Shown: positions 5,430 through 49,600 of the stretch, piece after piece
Layout of the letters: each line of letters begins with the position of its first letter
Numbering within the stretch: the first letter of the stretch is position 1
Assembly (NCBI RefSeq): GCF_037042905.1
Contig: NC_087251.1
Coordinates: forward strand, 30,382,001-30,446,000
Origin: Lytechinus pictus
Taxonomy: Eukaryota
DNA length: 64,000 nt
Reading direction: 5' to 3'
The notes under the pieces: model-generated
Told to the model about the DNA's origin: nothing
Databases searched by the model: none
The model's input: the letters and a program-made list of their open reading frames with translations, nothing else
Position numbers and translations under genes: made by a program

Positions 5430-5765
5430 ATGATGAAGCGCAATGTCAAATTTCACAGACGGCAACCAATAAAATTTATACAACTCATTCAAAACTGGAA
5501 ACAGGAATCTATTTCTTCAGCAAAAAAATCATTAAGAGGCAAATTTCTTGAGACAGCACACTATAAAATTCATCAAACTGCATCCAGATGGCAAGTGGAA
5601 ACCTTTTTTTAGACAAATGTTCGACAGTTGGAAAAAATTAATACAACAAGCATCGTCAAATTTCACAGGCAATACCAAATAAAACTTATAAGCCTCGATC
5701 CAGACTGAATGTAGAAAACCACTCCTTTAGCCAAAGGGTCATTGAAAGTTGGAACAATCTACCAA
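5430..5765 (+). mobile_element. Degenerate CR1-type LINE ORF2 C-terminal remnant
   Basis: KTYKPRSRLNVENHSFSQRVIESWNNLP matches the CR1 ORF2 end motif (FSxRVxxxWNxLP). Confidence 0.65.
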
Positions 5766-8700
5766 TTAATTGGAAGACAACTGGATCAACTAGATGCTTT
5801 CCCAATATAGCAAACCTTCCTTACATTAATCCAGCCAAGTGAACAAATCCAATTCTGATCCCAAGGATATGACTGTAAGTGTTCCCTGAGGAGAAAAGAA
5901 AACTGACAATGCAAGGACTGATGGAACATAGACAATGGAGAGTTCCGAAGGTTGACAATCTGGTGGATCAATGCCCCACTCACAGACCAGAAGGTGGATG
6001 AGGAGCTTAGCACTGTATGTCAAGCCGCAGGACCTGGTTGAGAAACTTCATCTTCTCTGATCAGAGGGACCATGAACAAAAGGAAGGAACCAATTCTGAT
6101 ATGGTCTACAGATATGATTTGCATGTCATTACAATGACAGTGAAAGACTACAAGATCCCATTAAAGATCAAGGGATGCAGATGTTGTCATTCTGGATCAC
6201 TTGCAGGGGAGGTCAATGAGCAATCAATCACCACGTAGTTTGAGCATCAGCAATACTTGGAAGATAGAAGCAACCTGAATAACTGAATGGAAGCCATAGG
6301 TTCCCTTACCGATCTAACTGACAAGGGTAAGCAGGAGTACCTTGAGCACATCAAACCAATGATTCCCCTCTCCAATATTTCTGAATGCATGAACTAGCAG
6401 AACTTTCCTCTACACAGGAATCTATACAAAATCCTTTCCAAGGAAAAAGCGTTGCTCCTAGACACAGAAAAGGAGTGTTCACCAAAAATTCCCCTTACTC
6501 GAATTCACACAAATTTATATAGTATGCGACTTGCATGATGTATTCAAGAGCACTGGACCTCATGCATAAGCTGAAAAGAACACCATTCCTCTTGGTCAGA
6601 CACCCGGGGGAAAGTGATATTCACCACATCATGTGCTACCCAAGCGTGTCCACACACTTATGAAAAGAGACCCTAACAGCGTTAACATTTGCTATGTGAT
6701 TCCTCAACTCAAAGTAAAAATTTTACTGCTAATGGCATATTTCTTGCAATACCATTTGGTCACATTTGTACCCCTTATGGCGTATTTCATGCAATCCCTC
6801 TGTGAAAATGGACCAACACCAAGATTTATTTTTGAATACCCTAATATTAAATGAAGATTAAAAAAAAAAAATTTGAAGGAAAACATTAAAGATGCTTCCA
6901 GAATGAAAAGTTTTGAAAACAGACACTTTTCAATGCTTTTTTTTTTGTGTGTGTAGACGCGCCTGAGTAGCATGCAATGTAGTGTGCTCTGCTAGCTTTC
7001 CAAATGTCACATGCAATTGAAACAAAATTCTGAAAGTCAGCAGCCCTCTCTTCAACCAAAGGTAAAAAATTCCTCTCTTTTTTTCCTTTGTGAAAACACA
7101 AATAGTATCCTCACTGAGCCAATACGGGGTGCAAACTGCTTCTCGATCGATCTTGATCAGTGCCGAGCCCCGAAACCGTCTTGGCTAAACTGCTCCATCG
7201 ATGAAATTTGACGAACATGTCATTGACAAATTTTGATAAGAGTAGACTAGAAACATTACAAAGGCAAGGATCCTGCATAATGGCTTGAAGAGTAAACAAC
7301 AACTGCAGGCACGATGGAAATCAAAATTTGACATTGCACTTCTAAAACTAGATTCTAGACTAATAGGTATTGCTCTGATTGAAGGAGCATTGTATTTTAC
7401 ACATTGTGGAAAAACCATTAAAGTACACTATGCTCATATGAATGGGTTGAAACTTTATATATGAAATTGAGTAAATACAATTTTTTGGCAGACGAACCGA
7501 TATTGACAAGTTACCTTCATCACGGTACCTTTCCAACGGAGCCATTGAACCTCTACTCATTCTGTGATTTCATGATGGATACGTGTATTCTCACAAACGT
7601 GAGGCTTTTGGTGAAAGGACCCAGATAAAATTTTAAATAAATTAGCCTGTCCAAAAAATTAACATGTACAGAAAAGGGAATATCTTTATCACAAAATTAT
7701 TCATACTGCTCCTTTACGGCTATACAATTAATATAAGATCAAAGTTTGTATTAAACTTCCTTGTTTAAAAATCTGTCTTCTTAGCACATTATTATATCAG
7801 TCATGGCAAATATCATGTTGCAATTGTGTGAAACAAATCATCTAGAGCAACAGCTTGAACAGATAGTACAGGGATGTATATAAAGAAAGAAAACAATCAA
7901 TGGATCAACAGATAATGCAAGTATTGTCACTGTAAAAGGAGAGGGAAAAGTGAAACATGAGGGGAGGAGGGTGTAGTAATGAGGAAGAAAGAGGATTGAA
8001 GAATAAGAAAGGGAATGGCTAGTACAAGGAAGAATAGAGAGACTACGGTAAAGATCAACAGATTGAGACACACAGCCAAAAAAAGGTAAGAGTCGTTTTT
8101 TGGTTAAAGAGCAAAAGCAATGGAGATTTTGTCCCATCACATTTTCCAAACTTGCCCTCAGGAATGTCGTTTTGATAGATTGAAATAAAATGTTTGAAGT
8201 TCAGAAAATGCAATTGTGTCTTAAATTGAATTAAACAGCCCAATATTAAGCGTGATACCACCACCAATTTTTTTGCATTAAGAAATTAACCCTCAAGTAA
8301 TAATTGCTGGAAAACCTTTGCATTGTCTTGCATACTCTAGGCTACACAAAATATCATTGAAAACAGAAATAAAGCACTTACATTATGGAAGCTGTATACC
8401 ATGCCCAACTGAGTCAAGTGCCCCATTCTGCACACTGAAAAATAGATCTCTTGGTAATGATGTCACTAATTGAGTGATTCTGGCAGGAAGACTCCAGCTC
8501 AAGTCAGACAGGAAGCCATGTTTGTGAGTTCTAGGGCCTATTCCATCAATCAAAGAGGTCAACTGCTATGGCCTTCCAACTTGGATAAATCTTCTGGGCT
8601 GCTGGTCTTACATTGTTTTCAAGAAAGAATAACATCATGAATACAAAGCAAGTATATAGTACAGACATACAAACACTCTCGGGCAGGTCCAAGCTATTTG

Positions 8701-35749: not shown

Positions 35750-36792
35750 AAAAATGGAGATATAGCTCACGAAATAGAGGAATGTAGAATCTAGTTTTGA
35801 GAAAAAGTCATGTCCCATAGAGATTACACGTAAAATGAGGAAAAATGACATGCCTCTTTTCATCGCAATTTTACACCATGATGCGTTTTTCAAAATGAAA
35901 ATTCATGCTAACTGACGAGAAAGAGTACATTCTAAACTACAACATATCGAAATCTGGGCGAAAAATGATCAATATTCACGGAGTTATGATCAAATTTGCA
36001 TAAATTTGATGACGTCATTTTTGAAAAAATGAAATTTTCAGTTTAGGCGCAATTTTGATGACGTCATGATCAAATTGAGGGACAATGGTGACATGAAATC
36101 AAATCTACAACTCATACTCTATCGATATATGAAAAAAAAAATTGGGGTCAACGGACTATTTAAAGAGCTACAGTGAATTTTCAATAGACATGTTTTTGCC
36201 CATATATGGCCTGTAGTGAGAGCTCGCGCGCACACGTGCTGCAAAGTTTAACGGGTGATAATTTCGTTATTACTTGTCGTAGAAGGTTGATCAAGGTATC
36301 AAATTGTTCAGAATTATATTATCGGTGCATTGATATAAAAAAATTTGGCGATTCTATGTTGAAAGATGCAATTACGCGCAAAAACGCGCGCGCATGTGCG
36401 TGCGCGCGTTTTTTTGCAAAATGCTTAAAATGGCCTGAAACGTATGGAAAATTAATTTGGAACGAATTTGAGCATTTTAAAATTTTAATGCGCGCGTACG
36501 TGCGCGTCGAGGTGCGCGCGCGGAATTTGATGAAATTTTTAGTTGACCGTTGACCTGAAATTGATGTATACCAAATATAGTTGATTTTTGATGACTCGTT
36601 ATCGAGATATGATAATGACCTGATTTTTACAAAATGGCGCCTGGATGACGTCACGATGACCTGATGACCTTGAAAAAGTTGATTTAACTTGAAATCATAA
36701 GGCTTGATGACTGACAGAAATTTGAAGGAAATTGACCATGTCGATTTCGAGTGAACGTGTGTGCAAAAAAGTGTACGGAAGAAATAAAAATA

Positions 36793-38495
36793 AACTAGAT
36801 TTTAATTCGTCATGCGGACGAATTAGGTGGTCTGTCCTTATTCTCGCCATCATGATCACTATTACCATGTTCAAGCAGATCAATATGATCTTCATGATGA
36901 CAACGGAATGTTCATTATGGATGGAATACTTGTGAAAGACGGGAGATGATAAAGCACTGTGAAAAGGGTCTCTTTGATATATGAAAATACATGTGATATG
37001 AAAAAAGTTATTATAATCTGTTTAATCTTGCTAAATTTTAACTTTAATACCTTTTAATTATCATAAAGGATCATGTACGAGGTGGTAAAAAGAAAAAAAA
37101 AAATGAAAAAAAAAATCATCTTGTTCACCCCCAGGACTCGAACCTGCGCCCCCGAGAACTCAAGTCAAGTGCGTTATCCATTGAGCCACGATATTCCCCA
37201 TAGAGATTACACATTCCCATAGAGATTACACGTAAGCAAATTTGAGAATTACAAATCCAATTTTGCAAGCGAAAAACGGGCATGATCCTGACATCTGATC
37301 GAAAAATGGAGGGCACACTTCCGAAAGCTTAGAATCTCAGCTACATCATACCAAAAGCTCAGGGATAACTAACAAGAAAAAATGGAGATATAGCTCACGA
37401 AATAGAGGAATGTAGAATCTAGTTTTGAGAAAAAGTCATGTCCCATAGAGATTACACGTAAAATGAGGAAAAATGACATGCCTCTTTTCATCGCAATTTT
37501 ACACCATGATGCATTTTTCAAAATGAAAATTCATGTAACTGACGAGAAAGAGTACATTCTAAACTACAACATATCGAAATTTGGGCGACAAATGATCAAT
37601 ATTAACGGAGTTATGATCAAATTTGCATAAATTTGATGACGTCATTTTTGAAAAAATGAAATTTTCAGTTTAGGCGCAATTTTGATGACGTCATGATCAA
37701 ATTGAGGGACAATGGTGACATGAAATCAAATTTACAACTCATACTCTATCGATATATGAAAAAAAATTGGGGGTCAACGCACTATTTAAGGAGCTACAGT
37801 GAATTTTTAATAGGCATGTTTTTGCCCATATATGGCCTATAGTAAGAGCTCGCGCGCACACGTGCTGCAAACTTTAACGGGTGTTAATTTCGTTATTAAT
37901 GGTCGTAGGTTGATCAAGGTATCAAATTGCTCAGAATTATATTATCAATGCAACGATATAAAAAAAACGGCGTTTCTGCGTTGCGTTGAAGGCGTTACGC
38001 GCGGAAACGCGCGCGCATACCTGTGCGTGCGCAAATTTTTGAAATGCTTAAAATGACCTGAAACGTACTTTACTTTGGTCAAAAAGTGATTTTGAGCATT
38101 TTAAAAATTTGACGAGCGCGTACGCGCGCGTCTTGACCTCCAGGTGACCTTTGATGACATGACCTGTTGACCCTTGACCTGAAGTTGATGTGATGTTAAT
38201 TTGATTGATTTTTGATAATTGATAATGGAGATATGATCGACAATGTGATTTTACAAAATGGCGCCTGGATGACGTCACGATGACCTGATGACCTTGAAAA
38301 AGTTGATTTAACTTGAAATCATAGGGCTTGATAACTGACAGAAATTTGAAGGAAATTGACCTTGTCGATTTCGAGTGAACGTGTGTACAAAAAAGTGTAC
38401 GGAAGAAATAAAAATAAATAAAGAATAAATAAAGAATAAAGAAAGAAAATTCTGGCGAAATCAATAGGTGATCTGTCGTTGACAGACCACCTAAT
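36793..38495 (+). mobile_element. Larger HINE-like element, complete inner copy (~1.7 kb)
   Basis: Near-identical to 34213-36792 once the nested insertion is removed; has its own 3' hairpin at about 38463-38494. Confidence 0.8.
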
Positions 38496-39965
38496 AAAGA
38501 ATAAATAAAGAAAGAAAATTCTAGCGAAATCAAGAGGTGATCTGTCTTTGACAGACCACCTAATAAATGATTTACCATGTTTAACATTTTAGTTTTGAAT
38601 CGTGTTTTTTTTTTGCTGAACATTATAAACATGTTTTTACCTTGCATAATTTCTTTTAAAGAAATTTGTTTTCATGTTGTTTAATTAAAATGAGAAAGCA
38701 TGAGGGGTCAGAGAGATAGTGCCGCCCATTGCGATTTTTCAAAAAAAATTTAATGGAAATGGTGTGGGGATAGGACCGAGGGAGAATAAAAGAAAACATA
38801 TTAATAAAAATATTTGGGCCTACATTACCCCCGGACATAATAGTACCCCGGAGAAGTTAAATTGACATCCGTTTTTGGTCGTCTTGCCGTGCAAAAAGAC
38901 GACCTGAAATTGATGACAACTAGCCCCCATATAAAAAATAACTTGGCACTGTGACCATCCCAGATAATGCATCAGTGCACTCACACTATTGCGAGGTTAG
39001 TATATGCTATACGAACCTCGCACAACCTACGTGTTTTTGTAGTGGATTTTAGAGTTGTCGTTAACATCGCTTCATAACGTGAATGATGTTAGCCGAAACC
39101 CATTCCGCTACTCACCAGGGCTTTTCCTGGTAGAAAGCGTTCCATTTTCAATTTTTAACATATTTTTTTAATTTAAAAAGGACACAAAAAAGAGCAAAAT
39201 CGCTTATCTCCGCCTGGAAAGTGGCTTTGCACGTCTCTTCCACGGAAATAAAAGGAAGGTCGTTGGTGGCGCTAATACAGTTCACAACCTTAATTCAGCT
39301 TGGTGGTATTTTTAAAACTAGATTCATATTCATTGTATGCGCAATTCCAATAATTGTTTGATAAAATAGAGACCCCAATAAATGCAATAACTTAAAAAAC
39401 ATACTTTTTTATTATTTTCTGACGATAATACTTTTTGGAAAATATTCAAAACGATGACAAATTAAACAAAAAATAAAGAAAATTCTATGTACCTTGAACG
39501 AAGCCCCGCAAGTGCTACCGTTTGTTTGTCAATTAACGTTCCACCAAATTCTTTACAGTAAAAAGATTGAACACTTTGCCGACTTCGCGTAACGCTTTGC
39601 ATCGATTTACGTGTAAGATAATTTTTGTGTCTAGTCTTTCAATTGTAGTGTCTTTGATATGAAGATAAATCGCGCGTCCTTTTTCGCTCATTAGACAAAA
39701 AATTTGAGAGCTAGAAAGGTGGCTTTCGTATTTTGTCAACGAGAAGAAAAATCAATGCTTAAATGACACATTTTGACGCATTCGTATTAATTTTTCATAA
39801 AGTAATGTTATTTGTTGAATGCGCCGTGCCTTCAATTATTCTGTAGTCGGCGGCAGAGATGTAGCCGTGGGTTGCATCAGTGTGCAACCCCCAAAAATGT
39901 TTAAAGGTGATATGTCAGTGTGGCTTGCTATAAACACATTTTCTCTCAATGCCGACGGTGGCAGG

Positions 39966-41795
39966 CGTAGCCAGGCGGCTTCTTGAGAGTAAAAATCATT
40001 TACTAACGTAGGCTTACTCTAAACGAAGCCAGGGAGTCCTTCCTATTCATCTGCGTGTACCGCAAAAAACCCTGAAACTTTCGCCCCCGAGATTTCTACT
40101 TTCCTTCTAAAAGATCTAGCTCTAAATCATGTACATGGGATAAAACTTCAAAAAACGTGTTCACCCAAGCAAAACATCGCCGGCGAACTCGATAAGTCAC
40201 GTGACCGCCGCCATTTTGCTAGGTCAATTGTTCGAGAACGCGCCGTAGAAGGCAATTGAAAGTATGTGCAAGATGCAATATGTTTTCTAGTTCAGTGGTT
40301 GAAGCGGGACATTTTAGCACTTTTTAATCTAGCACCGCTCATAATTTTGCCGCCCACTATACGCGTCACGTAACTAGGTTGCATTAACAAAGGATCAATG
40401 ATGGCGATGTCAACAAGTGTAAGTAAACTCTCTTCTACTTTTATTACTGCATGTCATTTTGGCGTCATTTTGTAACCATAACTATCCATTTTTTGCCAAA
40501 CGTTGCCAACCAATATTTTTACCCATGTACAGAAGTGTTAACCTCAGATTCTAAACATAACTAGCAGTTTGGCGCATTTTTATAGTTGCCTTTTTCTTTG
40601 GTGCGTGGGAGCCTATATGTATGATGGGGTGTCCAAACTTCGCGCACTTTTCAAAAATATTCATCAGGCTTCAATTTTTTCACAAAATATTCATAATTTA
40701 TACAAAACCAATTCAAGAAATAGTTACCACATTGACGGCAAGATCGTAAACTATAAAATCATGAACGAAAATGTAAAGTAGGTCAAGGGGATTTGCCGGT
40801 ATCGCGATCTCAAAATTCTATTCCGATCGGCGAATGCGCGTTGTGCTGGAAAACCGTTCAGAAAAAGTGTGACCTAACTTCGCGGACCAAAGTTTTTGTG
40901 GACATTTATACAAAACTCAAGCTCAAAAAGTGAAATATTTATATCAGATTGATGGCAAAATGCTATAGAATCGGTTAGTACCACATTTAACTCACATTTT
41001 TGATGATTTCTGCTTGCAAAATGGTGATATCGTGATGCTTGTTGAGAATATCAGATTTCTTCAAAACGGGCGCTAACGGTGACAAATTTGCCGATCTTTT
41101 GCCAATATTTTCATGAATACTGAACTCATCCTAAAGAAACTTACACCAAAGGGTAATTTTAGGTCGCTTTTCACGTTGATGATGTCAGATTTTAAGGATA
41201 TTGGCTAGTTTTTTAGATAATGACCGTCCGCGAAATTTGGACTCACTGCCATACAAACGCCAGGCGTTCGGGGAGTGACCATACGTAGAGTATATTACTT
41301 TTACTCCCCAGACGCCTCCAGGCTAGGTACACGCAGATGAATAGGAAGGACTCCCTGGCTTCGTTTAGAGTAAGCCTACGTTAGTAATGATTTTTACTCT
41401 CATTCTCAAGAAGCCGCCTGGGAGACTCTCATCAACGCAAGCGTCCGTATCGTGGGTGAAGAACAATAGAAAACAAGATGGCGGCGTAAACATCGGGCAA
41501 GTCTCTTCCGTCTATTCATGATATTTTCCTCATTTTTTTTGATGAATTCTTGTCTAGAAATAAAATCCATGGCGTAGAAATGTCGGAAATGAAGTTGTAA
41601 TTATCCCATGTACATGATTTAGGGCTAGATCTTTTAGAAAGAAAGTAGAAATCTCGGGGGCGAAAGTTTCAGGTTTTTTGGTGGTACACGCAAAAGTATA
41701 GGAAGGAAGACCTGGCTTCGTATGAGAGTAACCTTACGTTAGGAAATGATTTTTACTCTCTAGACTAGTACTAGGCCTAGTAGAAGCCTCCTGGC
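39966..41795. mobile_element. Inverted-repeat element whose right terminus is interrupted by the 41796-46845 insertion
   Basis: 39966-40150 is the reverse complement of about 41590-41795, which resumes as CTCCTGGCTACG at 46846-46857. A second partial inverted copy lies at 41326-41421. Confidence 0.7.
40196..40218. promoter_or_regulatory. USF/CLEAR-type E-box directly adjacent to a YY1 motif
   Basis: GTCACGTGAC followed by GCCGCCATTTTG in CpG-enriched sequence. A second YY1-type motif, AAGATGGCGGC, is at about 41476. Confidence 0.45.
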
Positions 41796-42039
41796 GGCTT
41801 AACTGCAGAATACCCCGACACTGCTCACTACCCAATCGTTGGTCAGCCAACACAACGATGTCAAGACCTATAGCTATATACTAATTCAATGGTATATAGC
41901 CTAGATATATCCATACTATTATATACGTACATGCATTACTGGTACTACTACTACTACTATACTACGTACGTACGTACGTATGACGGTACGTACGAGCAAT
42001 GCATCCAGGCCATACGTAATGACCTTTGCCCTTTGACTA

Positions 42040-42452
42040 CTACTAGAGCTATAATTAAACATCGTTGGGTGCGCTGCTAGCCAACGACCCACGTTGTGAC
42101 GGTACGGACGGTGCAATATAATATTCAAAACATCGTTGGCTAACCAACGACCCACGATGTGAAACTGTTATATCATAAAATAAGATTAATACACTCTTTT
42201 AAATTACCTACTAGAGCTATATACATCGTTGGGTGCGCCGCTAGCCAACGACCAACGATGTGACGGTGCCATGTAACATTTAAAACATCGTTGGCTAACC
42301 AACGACCCACGATGTGAAGGTGCAATAGTACAAGATTAATACACTCTTTTAAATTACCTACTACTACTAGCTATTGCTATACATCGTTGGGTGCGCCGCT
42401 AGCCAACGACCAACGATGTGACCGTGCAATGCAACATTCAAAACATCGTTGG
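42040..42452. repeat. Left subterminal ~160-bp repeats containing ACATCGTTGG...CCAACGA palindromes
   Basis: Three copies of acatcgttgggtgcgc(c)gctagccaacgacc..., at about 42060, 42222 and 42381. Confidence 0.9.
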
Positions 42453-42659
42453 CAAGCGTTTCAAAGTATGGTTTCACAAAACAGTTTAATATATGCATAT
42501 CCTGGTTAGTGAGGTGATCGATGTCATTCACTCTCTATTTCTTTTGTATTTTTTATACATGAAATATTTTCATTTTTTCTTCATTAAAATATGAAATAAA
42601 GTTTTAATTCCCATTGAAGGAATTCAATGGGAATTGAATTCAATGGGAATTGAATTCAA

Positions 42660-42671
42660 TTAGGGTTAGGG

Positions 42672-42712
<41 letters not shown>

Positions 42713-42720
42713 GGTTAGGG

Positions 42721-42817
<97 letters not shown>

Positions 42818-42837
42818 GGTTAGGGTTAGGGTTAGGG

Positions 42838-42897
<60 letters not shown>

Positions 42898-42950
42898 GGT
42901 TAGGGTTAGGGTTAGGGTTAGGGTTAGGGTTAGGGTTAGGGTTAGGGTTA
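42660..42950 (+). repeat. Interstitial telomeric repeat (TTAGGG)n
   Basis: 291 bp made of 41 TTAGGG, 6 TTTAGGG and a final TTA. Confidence 0.99.
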
Positions 42951-44180
42951 TATTCACATCATTGGCATCGCCGGCAATGTTGGCCTCTACAACAGGCATA
43001 TTCACATCGTTGGCATCGCCGGCAATGTTGGCCTATGTAAGATACATTCACATCGTTGGCACTGTTGGCATCTACTACAGGCACCAACACATCGTTGGCA
43101 TCGCGGGCGCTGTTGGTATATACATACTAAACATACATTCACATCGTTGGCATCGCCGGCAAAGTTGGCCTATACTTACTAAAGATACATTCACATCGTT
43201 GGCATCGCCGGCAATGTTGGCCTCTACTACAGGCATATTCACATCGTTGGCATCGCCGGCAATGTTGGCCTCTACTACAGGCATATTCACATCGTTGGCA
43301 TCGCCGGCAATGTTGGCCTATGTAAGATGCATTCACATCGTTGGCACTGTTGGCATCTACTACAGGCACCAACACATCGTTGGCATCGCGGGCGCTGTTG
43401 GTATATACATACTAAACATACGTTCACATCGTTGGCATCGCCGGCAAAGTTGGCCTATACTTACTAAAGATACATTCACATCGTTGGCATCGATGGCAAG
43501 GTTGGCCTGTACTACAGACACCAACACATCGTTGGCATCCTGGCCGGCGCTGTTGGCCTATACGTACTAAAGATACATTTACATTGTTGGCATCGTTGGC
43601 ACTGTTGGCATCTACTACAGGCACCAACACATCGTTGGCATCGCGGACGCTGTTGGCCTATACATACAAAAGATACATTCACATCGTTGGCATCGCGGGC
43701 AAGGTTGGCCTATACTACAGACACCAACACATCGTTGGCATCCTGGCCGGCGCTGTTGGCCTATACGTACTAAAGATACATTTACATTGTTGGCATCGTT
43801 GGCACTGTTGGCATCTACTACAGGCACCAACACATCGTTGGCATCGCGGGCGCTGTTGGCCTATACCTACTAAAGATACATTCACATCGTTGGCATCGAG
43901 GGCAATGTTAGCCTGTACTCTACAGTACAGACACCAACACATCGTTGGCATCGCGGGCAATGTTGGTCTACATAGGAAACTACAGATATGATCGCATCGT
44001 TGGCATCGCGGGCACTGTTGGCATGTACTACAGACACCAACACATCGTTGCCATGGCGGGCAATGTTGGTTTACATAGGCAACTACAGATATGATCGCAT
44101 CGTTGGCATCGAGGGCAATGTTGGCCTGTACTACAGACACCAACACATCGTTGGCATCGCGGGCAATGTTGGTCTACACC
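42951..44180 (+). repeat. Complex minisatellite, ~45-55 bp monomers with core ACATCGTTGGCATCGCSGGCAATGTTGGCCT
   Basis: Directly visible tandem monomers with larger duplicated blocks; starts immediately after the telomeric tract. Confidence 0.95.
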
Positions 44181-46261
44181 ACTCGTCATCCCCGACCATT
44201 TGCCAAACAGCAAAAGGTAGGGGATGGGACTAGAGGTATGTGAGGCGTACTCATAGACAAAATTTGTGATAAAAAATGTAAAAGTAAGAGAGTTTGACTT
44301 ACCAGTCTTTCCCCCCGAACCAAACGTTGATCTTCCTTCCGTTGTTGCTGGAATTTATCTTGGACTCAACGATATCTTGTCAATTATTCGAGGACTCTTC
44401 GGTAAATCGTCAGAATGTATGATGAAATTTGTCATGATCCTCAGCAGCGCATAGACTTCTACGTAGAGGATGTAACGCGCCCTCTTGTGCTCAATTAAAG
44501 AAAGCTCACGGAAGCGACCACACCACTGTCCTCTACAAAGCTGTATAAAAATCATAGAGATATACATCTCTATGATAAAAATGCTTCTCACCACAGATAC
44601 CTGTTTCCGGTGATGCTTCTATTTCGGAAATCCAAGATCCAGCGATAGTAGTCTCTTTCTCCCCTGACACACAATATTTTATTTTTATTATTTTATACAT
44701 CAGAATAATTTTAGCGCCATCAGCTTAGTTTATTCTATAATGAACTGTATCTTGTCGTATGCTGAAAGGAAATATGATGCCTTTTTTTTTGGGGGGGGGG
44801 GGTTATTGCTTCTTTTCTCGATCCCCGATGCCTCTCTTTTATTGAGTACTATCATTGTAAGGGTTAATTATTAATATTATTATTTTGGTTTTCTATTATT
44901 TTTCATATTATTATGGAATATTCATCATCATATCACTTTTGTAAGCCAACATTTTGTACCATCCTGAAATTAATATGGGTCAAGGCTGAAATGTGAAAAG
45001 AATGGAAGGGGCAAGAAACTCAAGACAAAGTGATAAAACAGAACATAATTACGTTCCAATTCTTTTTAATGAGTTTCTTTTATTTATCCAGGATGGGGAG
45101 CACATCAGGCTCGTGCCCACCCCCTCGAAAGCCATAGAACACATTTATTTTGCATCCATTTTGTTTGATAATTTGTACTGTTAATTTCATTTGATTGTAA
45201 TCCTTTATGTTTGGATTTGAAATCAATTAAATTAACTTGAAACTTTCCCGCCCTCCCCTTGAAAATTGTGATCTACCCCTAAATAGGCCTTTGTGGTAAG
45301 TGATTTTTTATTTTATTTATTTCTTAATGAAAATCCTTTAGGTTAGGATTTTAAATCAATGAAAACAAACTTGAAACTTCATACTGTATAGCGAGGAGCT
45401 GTTATCATAATAAATAAATAACTAAATCAAATAAATCAAAATCAAATCATAATTGTGAAATTATTCGTTACATAAATCTCCTTCACGGGGGGGGGGGGGA
45501 GCTTGTGATTTTTTTCTGTAAAAGAAACCACCCCTCCCCCTTTGGAAAATCCTGGATTCTCCCCTGATTAGACCCACAGTAAAGTTTGTTATTCTGAATT
45601 TCTGTTACATAATAATTTGGAAATTAATGCCTAACTTTGTGAAAAGTATTTCTATCGTCAGGTTCATTAATTAGAAAAGAATAAGGGGCTTTTTCATCAA
45701 GAGTCCCATAACAGAAAATTAACAAAATCAAAACAACTGAATTTCTCCTTAATTTTTTTTTTTTTCATACAAAAATGTCTTATTTCATTCCACTTTCACA
45801 ACTACTAGTATCACTTTTGACTTTGTATAAACATGAAACAAAATTGCAAATTTGTCTTGATTGAGGCTATCAAGACTTCCTTACCAGAATTCATTACAAG
45901 CAAAGTTTCGTCGAAACATCAATGGTCAGTGGTCCAAACGGGTTGATGAGCCTCTATGGTTTCGTGAGTTCTTTTTTCTTTTTCGATTTGTCACTGTCGA
46001 ACACAATAGACGTAATGGAGGCAGTTGGATGAGGTTCACGTTGAGAAATCGGTGAGTTTTTATTCATTTTTTATATCATATTTATTAATTTAAAGTCATA
46101 TCTGTCAAAATAACAGTTTACATCAACGGATCAGTTCAAGTATGAACTGATTCGCGATGCTTTGGGCAACAGATGGGGGGAAAATGACCAATATATATTT
46201 TAACAATAGAGAGGTATACAGCCGAGAACGAGGTTATATTATAACCTCGTTCGTAGGATGA

Positions 46262-46670
46262 GTGGTCTACACATACTACGGAAATATACACATCGTTGGC
46301 ATCGCGGACACTGTTGGTCTACATACTACAGAACACAGATATAGATCGTTGGCATCGAGGGCAGTGTTGGCCTGTACCGACTACAGACACCAACACACCG
46401 CTACCATCGCGGACTGTGTTGGCCTACACGTACTACGAAAATATACACATCGTTGGCATCGCGGGCAATGTCGGCCTACATACTACAGATGCACACAGAT
46501 ATATATATAGATCGTTGGCATCGCGGGCAGTGTTGGCCTGTACTACGGACACCAACGCACCGCTAGCATCGCGGACTGTGTTGGCCTACACGTACTACGA
46601 AAATATACACATCGTTGGCATCGCGGACACTGTTGGTCTACATACTAATCGCGCGCGCTCGCATCGTTAG
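46262..46670 (+). repeat. Second ACATCGTTGGCATCG minisatellite block near the right TIR
   Basis: Same core and orientation as 42951-44180. Confidence 0.9.
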
Positions 46671-49600
46671 CGTTACAGTGCAGTCTGAACACTTAGAATC
46701 TATTCAAAAAATACTTAATGTAAGTTGTAAATCATTCAATTATTTATTATAGCTGATTTTCTGATTTGATAGCTTAAGTACATCGTTGTGCGTTGGCTCT
46801 CCAACGATAAGGTAACGCAGTGTCCGGGTATTCTGCAGTTGTTCCCTCCTGGCTACGGAGGACCACTCATTCAATGAACAAGGTTAGGACATGTCTGGAG
46901 GTGTCTTTCGCTTTCCAAGGACTATTCTTCGTATCGCCCAAATCGGCCTTGTGAAACAGTTGAGCGATATCTCGTTCTTACGTCATGTACGTATGGTTCT
47001 ACGAAAGACCCTTTCAAAACTGGGCTGCGGCCCGCGAAGCGGGCCGGAGCTCCCTGCCTGGGTTACGCAGCGGCCTGCTGCGCCCGCCCGCCAGCTGCGG
47101 CGGCGCGGCAGCCCCAGATCGAATCCACACACACTTCCAAAACAAAATTACAAGAAAAAGAAAAGAACAAAGTGGCATGCCAACAAAGTATGAGAACGTA
47201 CATTATCGCAATTCAATCATAAGCAATTAAAGGGTACAAAATTTATTTAAACTAGGTACCTGGTACACTCACCTCTACTAATAAGATTATCAACATTTTG
47301 AATCTGCCGGCGAAGAAACTAGCTGCGATGCGGCGACAGTGAGGTCACATGACGTATGTGATATGATATGGCACGCCATTTGTCCCGGCAAAACTAGCAC
47401 TTAATTTGTGAAAATTTCAGTACAAATATGTCAGATTTTAAGATGTCTGGAGGGTAAATCCTTCCTTTCGCTGAAAACTGAATTTTTTTTAAATTTATCG
47501 CGCCCTTTAGCTCCCCTTATCATAGTAAAGTTCTTCTTCTCGAGGGTACCCCGTTCACCTATGAATAAGTGACCTGTATTTGACTTGAATGTCCTTATTT
47601 ACTTCTGATAAATGCCCCCTATCTTTTCTTGTTAGTGTAAAACTACCAGTATTTTAAATGTAAGCCAAGGTAATTGCAAATAGCATCCTTTTCTTCATTC
47701 TGCAGGGGCAGCAGAACTGGAGGAGGTAGGGGCACTTATTAATTCCCCCAATAATTTTCATATGATTCTTTAATGACATGTGCCTAGTGTGAGTGTGAGT
47801 GTGAGGTAACATTTTTTTTTTATCTGTGCATTTTCATTCCTGAAGTTGATTCTTTTTTATTTATTAAGTATTTGTTATTGTGTTGTTGTTCTTTGCGCCT
47901 TAAGAGGTGGGTATAGGTACGACATAATTGGGAGAATTTTATTCAACATTTTATGCCTAAAAGGGGCATTAATCCTCATTAATCCTTACAGTGCACTCGG
48001 GTCGGGAGGCCCTGTGTTTATTATGTTCTCTTCAGGCGATATAAGGTGACTTTACAAAAGTAAGGGAATTTTCCGACGGTTACTTTCTCTTCAACAAACA
48101 CTTCATTTGAAAGTGAATAATATTCTATATCCTTTTAAAAATCAAAAAAAAATCAGAGTGAAAAAAAAGTTGTAATTCAGAATAGCCCACATAGCAGGTT
48201 TACAACTTAAGTGTGGGGGAAGTTCTATGCCATCACCTTGCCCCTCACCCACAGCAACACTCACCCTTGTGAAACGCAGCAATGAACAATAGAAGAAAGT
48301 GAAAATGAGATTGTTTACCATGCAAAGGTACATTATGTTTCACGGGGGCATATGGGACATACTCATCGAAGGACTCGAGGCTACCACCTTTACATTAAAT
48401 ATACTTAATAGAAAGGTTAATTGTGCCCCTGAGGGGCGAACATTTCTCATTTTTTCAGTTACCATTTTTCGACAAGAAAAGTGCTTTCATGCATGGAGGG
48501 TTTTTTCTTGTCTTTAAAAATTGATTATTTCCTAACTTAAAGGGGCACATGGAACCATGGCCGTACACATAGGGAAAGGAACAGTTGCCCACCCCCGTCA
48601 TTTTGAAACCTACATTTCGTAATGAATATTTTCATAAAATTATCAAAAAGTGTGCACGAACTTCACTTTATAAAATGCAGACAAGCTTGATCGCTTCTCA
48701 CTTAATTGCCTTCGAGTTTCTTCTAACATCTATCCCCCCTCCGGAAAAAATATATTCGGACATTGGGATTAAGGGTTCTTCAAAAAAAGTATAATTGGGG
48801 AGGGGGCAAGTGTTGATCCCCTCCCCCACCCCTTTAAACCAGGAGAATTAAACCCCTTAAATAGTTTTGCAACCCATAAATTCTATTGGGGGCAAGGTCC
48901 CATCTTAAGTTTACAAACATAAAAATAAAAACTTATAGTAATGTTCATCAAAAATGGAAAAACTAAGATTTTCGATTGATAAACACAACTTATCAAATAA
49001 TTGTTCATCAAGTGGAAAACTCATTTTCTTGCTCGATAAATTAAGTTTTTCAAATTTACAATTGAAAAACTAAGTGAATCCTTCGAAAACCCTAGGTTTT
49101 CACCGATAAATTGAGTTTTTCGATGAAAAACTGAGTTTATCGCCAATACACTTAGTTTTTTCAAGCAATATACATGTAATGAAAAATTCTATTTTGGGGG
49201 TGATAAACAGTATTTTGTTAGAAAAACTTGGTTTACATTGAAAAATTGAGTTAATCGCCTTATGGGACAAATGGCGCGCCATACACGGATGCAGAGACCA
49301 AGTATAGTGTCGCCGAAACGTCCAATTGCGAAAAAAAAGAGATCAGAATGCGAAGGGCTAAGCATACCGGCTACACCCGTTACTAGTATATAGGGCAGAT
49401 TCAGCATGTCCAATAAAGTGTGTGTGTGTGTGGGGGGGGGTATTGGTGTGACTGCTTCAAAGCATTAATTGTTGGGGTAGCCCTTTAAGCTTTTATCAAA
49501 AAATGCAAAAATGTTCATGTTATTTAGAGATTCAGATTTATGAAGGGCCTACAAAAAATGATGCGATATTACTTAGGTGACCCTGAGCAGAACATTCTTG

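Follow-up and report, generated by a model that had tools for sequence, protein, structure and literature searches.

A telomeric repeat tract carried by a young, probably Merlin-type DNA transposon family in Lytechinus pictus

A 64,000-nucleotide stretch of Lytechinus pictus DNA (NC_087251.1, positions 30,382,001 to 30,446,000; hereafter the window, which is C7:30382001-30446000 in the contig handles of a genome of 812 Mb in 368 contigs) contains a 5,050-bp element at 41796-46845 that is bounded by terminal inverted repeats (TIRs) and carries a telomeric (TTAGGG)n tract in its interior. The element is bracketed by identical copies of an 8-bp target-site duplication (TSD), CTCCTGGC. The core arms of the TIRs (41801-41824 and 46817-46840) are 24 nt long and 96% complementary, and global alignment extends the repeats to 66 nt (41796-41861 versus 46780-46845) at about 80% identity, the two ends starting GGCTTAACTGCAG and GGAACAACTGCAG. 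The 15-mer AACTGCAGAATACCC occurs twice in the window, at 41801 and 46826, once per strand, against an expectation of 0.15. A preliminary description of this DNA had reported imperfect TIRs of about 65 bp opening with GG and an exact 8-bp TSD, and both observations stand.

The tract consists of 41 TTAGGG and 6 TTTAGGG units, in agreement with the 47 units counted previously. All 33 (TTAGGG)3 matches in the window lie inside it and on the plus strand, with 0 expected. It is followed by a minisatellite, which Tandem Repeats Finder (TRF) delimits as a 48-bp array at 42952-44172 and a 52-bp array at 46263-46642; a further array of 158-bp period lies in the left arm (Table 1). The sequence ATCGTTGG is found 38 times inside the element (35 plus, 3 minus) versus once across the remaining 59 kb of the window, while CATCGTTGGC occurs 29 times in the element, exclusively on the plus strand, and nowhere else in the window. 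TRF and these motif counts thus bear out the earlier report of arrays built from a TIR-internal motif, CATCGTTGG. Long frames running over the minisatellite were rejected as genes, being artefacts of the 48-bp period. A Pfam scan of seven open reading frames (ORFs) from the window copy returned no families, so this copy is considered non-autonomous.

Table 1. Features of the telomere-carrying element in the window (positions in the window)
Feature	Position	Strand or part	Basis or remark
Left TSD copy	41788-41795		CTCCTGGC, same as 46846-46853
Left TIR, 66 nt, starting GGCTTAACTGCAGAATACCC	41796-41861	+	aligned with the reverse complement of 46780-46845
Left arm	41862-42659	+	unique stretch, then the repeats below; TRF
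158-bp tandem repeats with CATCGTTGG...CCAACGATG palindromes	42036-42453	left arm	TRF
AT-rich 216-bp segment	42444-42659	left arm	TRF
16-bp repeat GAATTCAATGGGAATT, 2.6 copies	42620-42660	end of left arm	TRF
Telomeric tract, 47 units	42660-42950	+	G-strand reads away from the left end
48-bp minisatellite, part 1, unit ATTCACATCGTTGGCATCGCGGGCAATGTTGGCCTCTACTACAGACAC	42951-44179	+	TRF, 24.7 copies
Nested non-coding TIR element, 2,085 bp, termini CACTC...	44180-46264		termini and own TSD
Minisatellite, part 2, 52-bp period	46265-46642	+	TRF, 7.2 copies
Right arm including the 66-nt right TIR (46780-46845)	46643-46845	-	inverted-repeat match and alignment
Right TSD copy	46846-46853		CTCCTGGC

The window copy is 5 kb long only because another, unrelated TIR element later landed in its minisatellite. 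This nested segment is missing from the canonical 2,497-bp copy and has its own 8-bp TSD, GTCTACAC, at 44172-44179 and 46265-46272; two ORFs scanned from it gave no Pfam match. The element bounds proposed in the preliminary description therefore hold for this copy, but 5 kb is not the size of the family, the nested insert having been overlooked. Eight long copies were examined, a set that leaves out a 6.8-kb copy on C4 and a 7.7-kb copy on C7, and the inserts of five that were compared lack mutual similarity and lie at differing positions; one of these inserts holds an RVT_1 reverse-transcriptase frame. An autonomous copy among the long members was sought and rejected, as the extra length of the 7.8-kb L038, 4.9-kb L047, 4.6-kb L035 and 4.7-kb L044 copies, like that of the window copy, comes from unrelated nested inserts. 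In a 7.5-kb copy on C14, the central 4 kb contains tract and minisatellite and no other long frame.

The element belongs to a dispersed family. A genome search with the left-end 75 bp returned 90 candidates, 40 of which were scored, so that the counts are lower bounds: at least 40 matches were obtained, and 38 of the 40 scored are 100% identical from base 41796 onward. Upstream of this base the flanks differ (25 distinct flanks in 30 loci, the remainder being local duplicates), which places the family boundary exactly at 41796. The terminal 15-mer is present 109 times in the genome (reversed control, 0), the right-end 30-mer 38 times (34 exact), and a 34-mer from 42501-42534 37 times. Twenty ten-kilobase loci were read and comprise 21 further full elements of 2,497-7,819 bp, each with the same two ends. 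Both ends begin with GG (GGCTTAAC... and GGAACAAC...) in the window copy and in all 21 others, 16 of which have a perfect 8-bp TSD and one more a 7/8 match; the targets are unrelated sites on many contigs. The canonical element measures 2.5-2.9 kb and is composed of a 66-bp TIR, a left arm of about 750 bp, (TTAGGG)n of about 25-49 units, about 1.3 kb of 48-bp minisatellite built on CATCGTTGG, and a 200-bp right arm with the second TIR. Because 18 of the 22 copies differ from the consensus at no more than two of the first 185 bp, the burst that produced them was very recent.

The telomeric tract is a constant part of this family. In 22 of 22 main-family elements read it occupies the same place in the same orientation relative to the TIRs, with identical junctions (left, ...GAATTGAATTCAA/TTAGGG; right, TTAGGG/TTATATTCACATCG...) and a length of 25-49 units, including 2-7 TTTAGGG variants. 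Genome-wide counts are 37 for the left junction and 36 for the right, with controls at 0. The junctions pair at 36 loci on at least 18 contigs and are separated by 123-360 bp in 35 of the 36 pairs (median 214.5). Left arms, recognized by a 32-mer at element position 205, number 42, and the tract comes next in 36; of the six that lack it, four on C10 are tandem duplicates cut short, one is a 3.5-kb copy on C8 and one a copy on C2. Since both junctions are the same at 36 loci, the tract belongs to the mobile unit and is multiplied along with it. In all, the family has placed a tract at about 45 internal loci. The preliminary description had left a choice between a transposon family that spreads interstitial telomeric tracts and a single copy that acquired telomeric DNA at a break; the junction counts and the 21 of 21 other elements with a tract establish the former and refute the latter, and the case in which all other copies lack TTAGGG, named there as fatal to the idea, did not occur. 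As for its term telomeric "seeds", the spread of tracts is upheld and a seeding role is unproven, with one suggestive chromosome end only.

Several individual copies depart from the common pattern. At C5:31918485-31919641, the tract junctions lie 1,126 bp apart, either because the tract has expanded greatly or because it has received an insertion. Five tandem left ends with a spacing of about 2.2-2.4 kb and an identical upstream flank are found at C10:1587489-1599505 (L020-L024); four of them stop after 310-500 bp, and the last alone continues into a full element. This array is a local tandem duplication that included the element end. Pairs of full copies in the same orientation occur at C22:1239675-1249674 (L037) and C2:10232705-10239679, 5.7 and 4.2 kb apart, respectively. 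The members of the C22 pair, with tracts of 32 and 35 units, have both flanks in common, a mutated right tip (…GTTAA) and no TSD, and for these reasons are attributed to segmental duplication instead of transposition.

A second subfamily was recognized from nine TIR pairs spaced only 1.2-1.8 kb apart, two of which were read. Exact sharing with the main family is limited to the terminal 22 bp, and the subterminal sequence has diverged. Both copies read nevertheless contain a tract in the same orientation, 24 units long in one and 6 in the other, at a distance of some 250-260 bp from the GGCTT end; a related array (CACAACGTTGGCATCGTTGG...) follows. One of these tracts has 22 canonical units out of 24. 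The TSD is perfect in one of the two copies and matches at 6/8 positions in the other, and the subfamily's tract junction occurs nine times in the genome, once for each of the nine pairs. Either the module of tract plus array predates the subfamily split or it was acquired twice at the same place.

The structure of the family accords with the Merlin superfamily of DNA transposons (Feschotte 2004). These are defined by TIRs of 24-462 bp, terminal 5′-GG, TSDs of 8-9 bp and a DDE_Tnp_IS1595 transposase (PMC8101967). The present family has all three structural features, namely GG ends, an 8-bp TSD and a 66-bp TIR. A genome search for DDE_Tnp_IS1595 (PF12762) gave 53 matches, the best of which (C2:49247332-49247730, 89 bits) lies in a 379-aa open frame. 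A 99%-identical left end of the family is located at C2:49252029-49252104 and is oriented with the ORF 4.4-4.8 kb inside. This copy has the left-arm 32-mer and none of the three tract-module markers searched (left junction, right junction and 34-mer). The 3.5-kb C8 copy is bounded by both family termini and is likewise without the tract module; over 716 bp of its interior, the identity to C2:50523-51238 of the C2 left-end region is 100%, and a second match, at 78%, lies nearer the ORF. The first 650-860 bp or so of the telomere-carrying family are common to the C2-type element and the C8 copy, and the latter seems to have arisen by deletion from a C2-type element that bears the transposase. 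C2:49247332-49252104 is a candidate autonomous Merlin element. The search for an autonomous partner that the preliminary description had recommended has accordingly produced a candidate frame inside a left-end copy, and no right end. Relatives of this candidate with 75-90% identity were noted on C13 and C6.

The surroundings of the window copy were also examined. The left flank at 41441-41764 is a high-copy repeat with a summed contig depth of about 1,200-2,400 in public runs; further copies lie at 39981-40143 of the window and at L019, L033 and L042, and RNA reads share a loose end at 41764. The repeat ends near that position, about 31 bp before the insertion site, and BLAST of the flanks against the window and all loci gave nothing spanning the site; the host repeat described earlier as split by the element is therefore not borne out. 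No paralogous empty site was detected in the 364 kb examined, and the empty-site alleles suggested as a check were likewise not found, with no bridging contig in the public runs. Contigs from these runs match the left arm without differences and stop at 41796, where other flanks take over, a behavior that fits a multi-copy element and is uninformative on this particular insertion. In two independent public runs, contigs extend about 30 nt beyond 42659, where the left arm ends. In a run with a second organism label (X9), contigs reproduce 41940-42659 of the left arm unchanged, and this family or a nearly identical one therefore also exists under that label. None of the matching runs listed is on record as RNA, and raw RNA reads over 41806-42403 reach 2-5x on one strand, with 69 of 75 fitting only partly, which gives no basis for a claim of expression.

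One chromosome end also bears family sequence. The left tract junction recurs at C1:5762-5786 on the minus strand, with the G-strand toward base 1, and the 34-mer lies at C1:5900-5933, with the same spacing as in the window copy (113 bp upstream of the junction). Neither a right junction, nor the 32-mer, nor the terminal 15-mer is within reach. At the start of C1, CCCTAA arrays occupy 38-861; as 34,399 eight-unit matches are present in the genome, TTAGGG is the native telomere repeat. The chromosome-end telomere thus appears to abut element sequence, the parts seen being 38-861 and 5762-5933 and continuity of the array between them being assumed. In the simplest readings, the end was capped from an element tract, arose through recombination between a telomere and a tract, is the source locus from which the 216-bp segment before the tract and the tract itself were taken, or is a mis-join. 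With respect to distribution, the mean relative distance of 28 copies on contigs of known length to the nearer contig end is 0.18 versus 0.25 for a uniform placement (P about 0.005), and the tract G-strand points toward the nearer end in 15 of 28, without bias.

Taken together, we consider it likely that the element at 41796-46845 of the window is a member of a very young cut-and-paste family that is non-autonomous, belongs to the Merlin superfamily, is mobilized in trans and has the telomeric tract as a passenger. The family would be moved by a DDE_Tnp_IS1595 transposase, whose source would be the longer C2 relative, which matches the family in its left terminus and left arm and has no tract module. 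The repeated CATCGTTGG and CCAACGATG motifs are probably transposase binding sites, alongside the TIRs. The enzyme would excise the unit and integrate it at a staggered 8-bp cut, and copy number would grow via repair of the donor site. The tract itself most likely came from a chromosome end or was added at a break in an ancestral element, after which it would have been amplified by transposition while tract and minisatellite lengths drifted by slippage. These steps would follow established cut-and-paste biology; the multiplication of a fixed tract by an element with TIRs and TSDs is directly observed.

Several points weigh against this interpretation. A perfect TSD is missing from five of the 21 other elements: two form a segmental duplicate pair, one has no TSD, one has a degenerate TSD and one is the copy with the 7/8 match. 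No listed contig piece bridges 41795/41796 (window 41300-42659 covered; the flank itself is high-copy), and neither an insertion polymorphism nor an empty site was seen, current mobility being read from sequence identity. The right end of the C2 element was not found past the ORF, either as an exact 15-mer or as a 30-mer within three mismatches; truncation of the C2 copy, or an ORF that lies beyond its bounds, may be the reason. The link to the transposase on C2 is one of coordinates, and by a rough estimate the chance of some Merlin match this near a family terminus is a few percent, low but not negligible. Finally, a tract kept nearly pure in two diverged subfamilies could equally mean that it is useful to the element.

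The rival explanations differ in which of these observations they accommodate. A one-off event, in which a single copy or a chromosomal break received telomeric repeats from telomerase during repair, draws on an established process, the insertion of short telomeric tracts at double-strand breaks in vertebrates (PMC7215372 and PMC8537989). It is nonetheless exceedingly improbable here, given the same two junctions at 36 loci and a tract in every other full element; a short interstitial telomeric sequence (ITS) made by break repair was rejected because the junctions are not locus-specific (37 left and 36 right identical). An assembly chimera or chromosome-fusion relic joined at 42660-42950 has a similarly vanishing probability, and nothing that speaks for it turned up. 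The exact TSD brackets the whole unit, the tract runs in a single orientation, identical architecture recurs at dozens of loci, each with its own TSD, and the contigs of two public runs continue beyond 42659. A head-to-head (TTAGGG)n(CCCTAA)n fusion relic was rejected in turn, with 33 of 33 matches on the plus strand and 22 of 22 elements in the same orientation. The earlier view that the flanks of the tract are one original locus and not two joined ends is supported by the exact TSD and the single tract orientation. Membership in another superfamily with 8-bp TSDs (Zisupton, hAT, P or Mutator), the Merlin ORF on C2 being coincidental, is improbable to a lesser degree. The TSD length is not discriminating, as it fits Zisupton, hAT and P as well as Merlin. 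Zisupton elements have long subterminal repeat arrays besides their 8-bp TSDs, a trait shared by the present family, and the right end of the C2 element has not been located. The combination of GG termini and 8-bp TSD is, however, the Merlin signature (PMC8101967), and the Merlin ORF lies inward of the terminus, about 1.5 kb past C2:49249247-49249568, a segment that matches the interior of the copy with two termini. None of 17 matches to the MULE domain (PF10551) falls within 1 Mb of the listed family termini, hAT, P and Zisupton transposases not having been searched; a Mutator-like assignment was rejected on this ground. The preliminary description had hesitated between Merlin and Zisupton, and Merlin is now favored on the GG ends, the TSD and the DDE_Tnp_IS1595 frame together, the TSD being common to both.

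A more serious, though still doubtful, alternative holds that the tract is no passenger but a functional module that binds telomere proteins or serves as a telomerase or recombination substrate, for example by seeding a telomere at a nearby break. It can appeal to the retention of the tract at an equivalent position in two subfamilies with different subterminal sequence, to the length and near purity of the tracts (41/47 and 22/24 canonical units), to the arrangement at C1 and to the somewhat closer placement of copies to contig ends. Against this, only one chromosome end is involved, array continuity over C1:862-5761 is assumed, and the C1 copy is without the outer left arm and TIR, where simple healing of a break within the tract predicts otherwise. 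Moreover, the G-strand shows no bias toward the nearer end, the end bias lacks a control against other transposons or gene density, and the absence of tract-module markers from the transposase-bearing C2 copy implies that the tract is not needed by the enzyme's own element. Unlikely, though worth stating, is an extension in which DNA passes between the family and genuine chromosome ends, the transposon acting as a mobile telomere seed: the C1 telomere would have grown from an element tract or its junction would have been captured by an element, and the tract would be retained by selection, with telomere proteins or telomerase recruited to about 45 sites. If true, capping sites would already be in place for the host, the element would profit through chromatin or repair, the C1 telomere would have arisen by break healing or telomere-tract recombination, and transposition would be tied to chromosome-end formation.

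Terminons, the Athena Penelope-like elements, and the telomere-bearing TBE1 of Oxytricha are known mobile elements linked to telomere repeats. MoTeR retrotransposons of Magnaporthe are described as creating interstitial telomere tracts and destabilizing chromosome ends (PMC7367193). Like all of these, the present family physically joins a mobile element to telomere repeats; they reside at telomeres or have the repeats at their termini and are mostly retroelements, whereas here a cut-and-paste family, probably of the DDE type, with an interior array is dispersed on chromosome arms. Among DNA transposons, the family resembles Merlin and its non-autonomous derivatives in its GG TIRs within the 24-462 bp range and its 8-bp TSDs. 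A longer relative that shares the left end has a candidate DDE_Tnp_IS1595 transposase, and internal tandem repeats are mentioned for some Symbiodinium Merlin copies (PMC8101967). It differs from Merlin as described in its constant cargo of a 123-360-bp telomere array and a 1.3-kb minisatellite; the string "telomer" is absent from the main text of that source. Tandem-repeat-bearing DNA transposons (PMC6947457) similarly show a minisatellite of subterminal motifs with variable array length in a non-autonomous TIR element, but here the telomere repeat of the organism itself makes up one of the two arrays.

The origin of ITSs is usually ascribed to chromosome fusions or to telomerase acting at breaks, and such tracts behave as fragile sites, are bound by shelterin and have the capacity to seed telomeres. 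The tracts described here share with telomerase-made short ITSs their short-to-medium (TTAGGG)n, single orientation and internal location, as described by the Giulotto and Nergadze group (PMC7215372 and PMC8537989). They differ in that the latter are independent insertions with their own junctions and without TIRs or TSDs, while here one tract was multiplied by transposition; the ancestral acquisition may itself have been a telomerase-type break insertion. Mobile elements have been proposed as possible vehicles of ITS spread (PMC6410037), on no other basis than that ITSs are "often flanked by" them. That process is the one seen here, where the tract lies within a defined element and TSDs mark dozens of sites. 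A literature search, with Repbase, Dfam and subscription journals outside its scope, retrieved no TIR transposon family with an internal canonical telomere array, and the present family is a sequence-level example of telomere-like DNA spread by a mobile element, with no other found in the literature searched. A mobile source of ITSs therefore matters for karyotype evolution, for the practice of reading fluorescence in situ hybridization (FISH) "ITS" signals as traces of fusions, and for telomere-to-telomere assemblies whose checks rely on counts of TTAGGG arrays. The family also offers a natural series of nearly identical loci, distinguished by nothing but their position and the length of their tract, in which the effect of ITS length and context on stability can be tested.

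Two further repeats were noted in the window. Another mobile family has the terminus motif CCACTCAT(T/C)C...GAAC(A/G)AGGTTA with a hairpin-like palindrome (window 46861-46886 and 46242-46267). One of its copies is nested in the window element, one terminus lies 8 bp past the right TSD of that element, and a further copy occurs in the minisatellite of the element at L043 (2348-2852 of that element), so that the minisatellite and its neighborhood seem to be ready targets for this family. Lastly, the minus-strand frames 36319-36801 (160 aa) and 38048-38671 (207 aa) contain a long near-identical stretch (…FYFFRTLFCTHVHSKST…VIVTSSRRHFVK…) and look like a duplicated repeat unit, about 1.8 kb apart, beside a 69-bp tandem repeat at 38424-38567.

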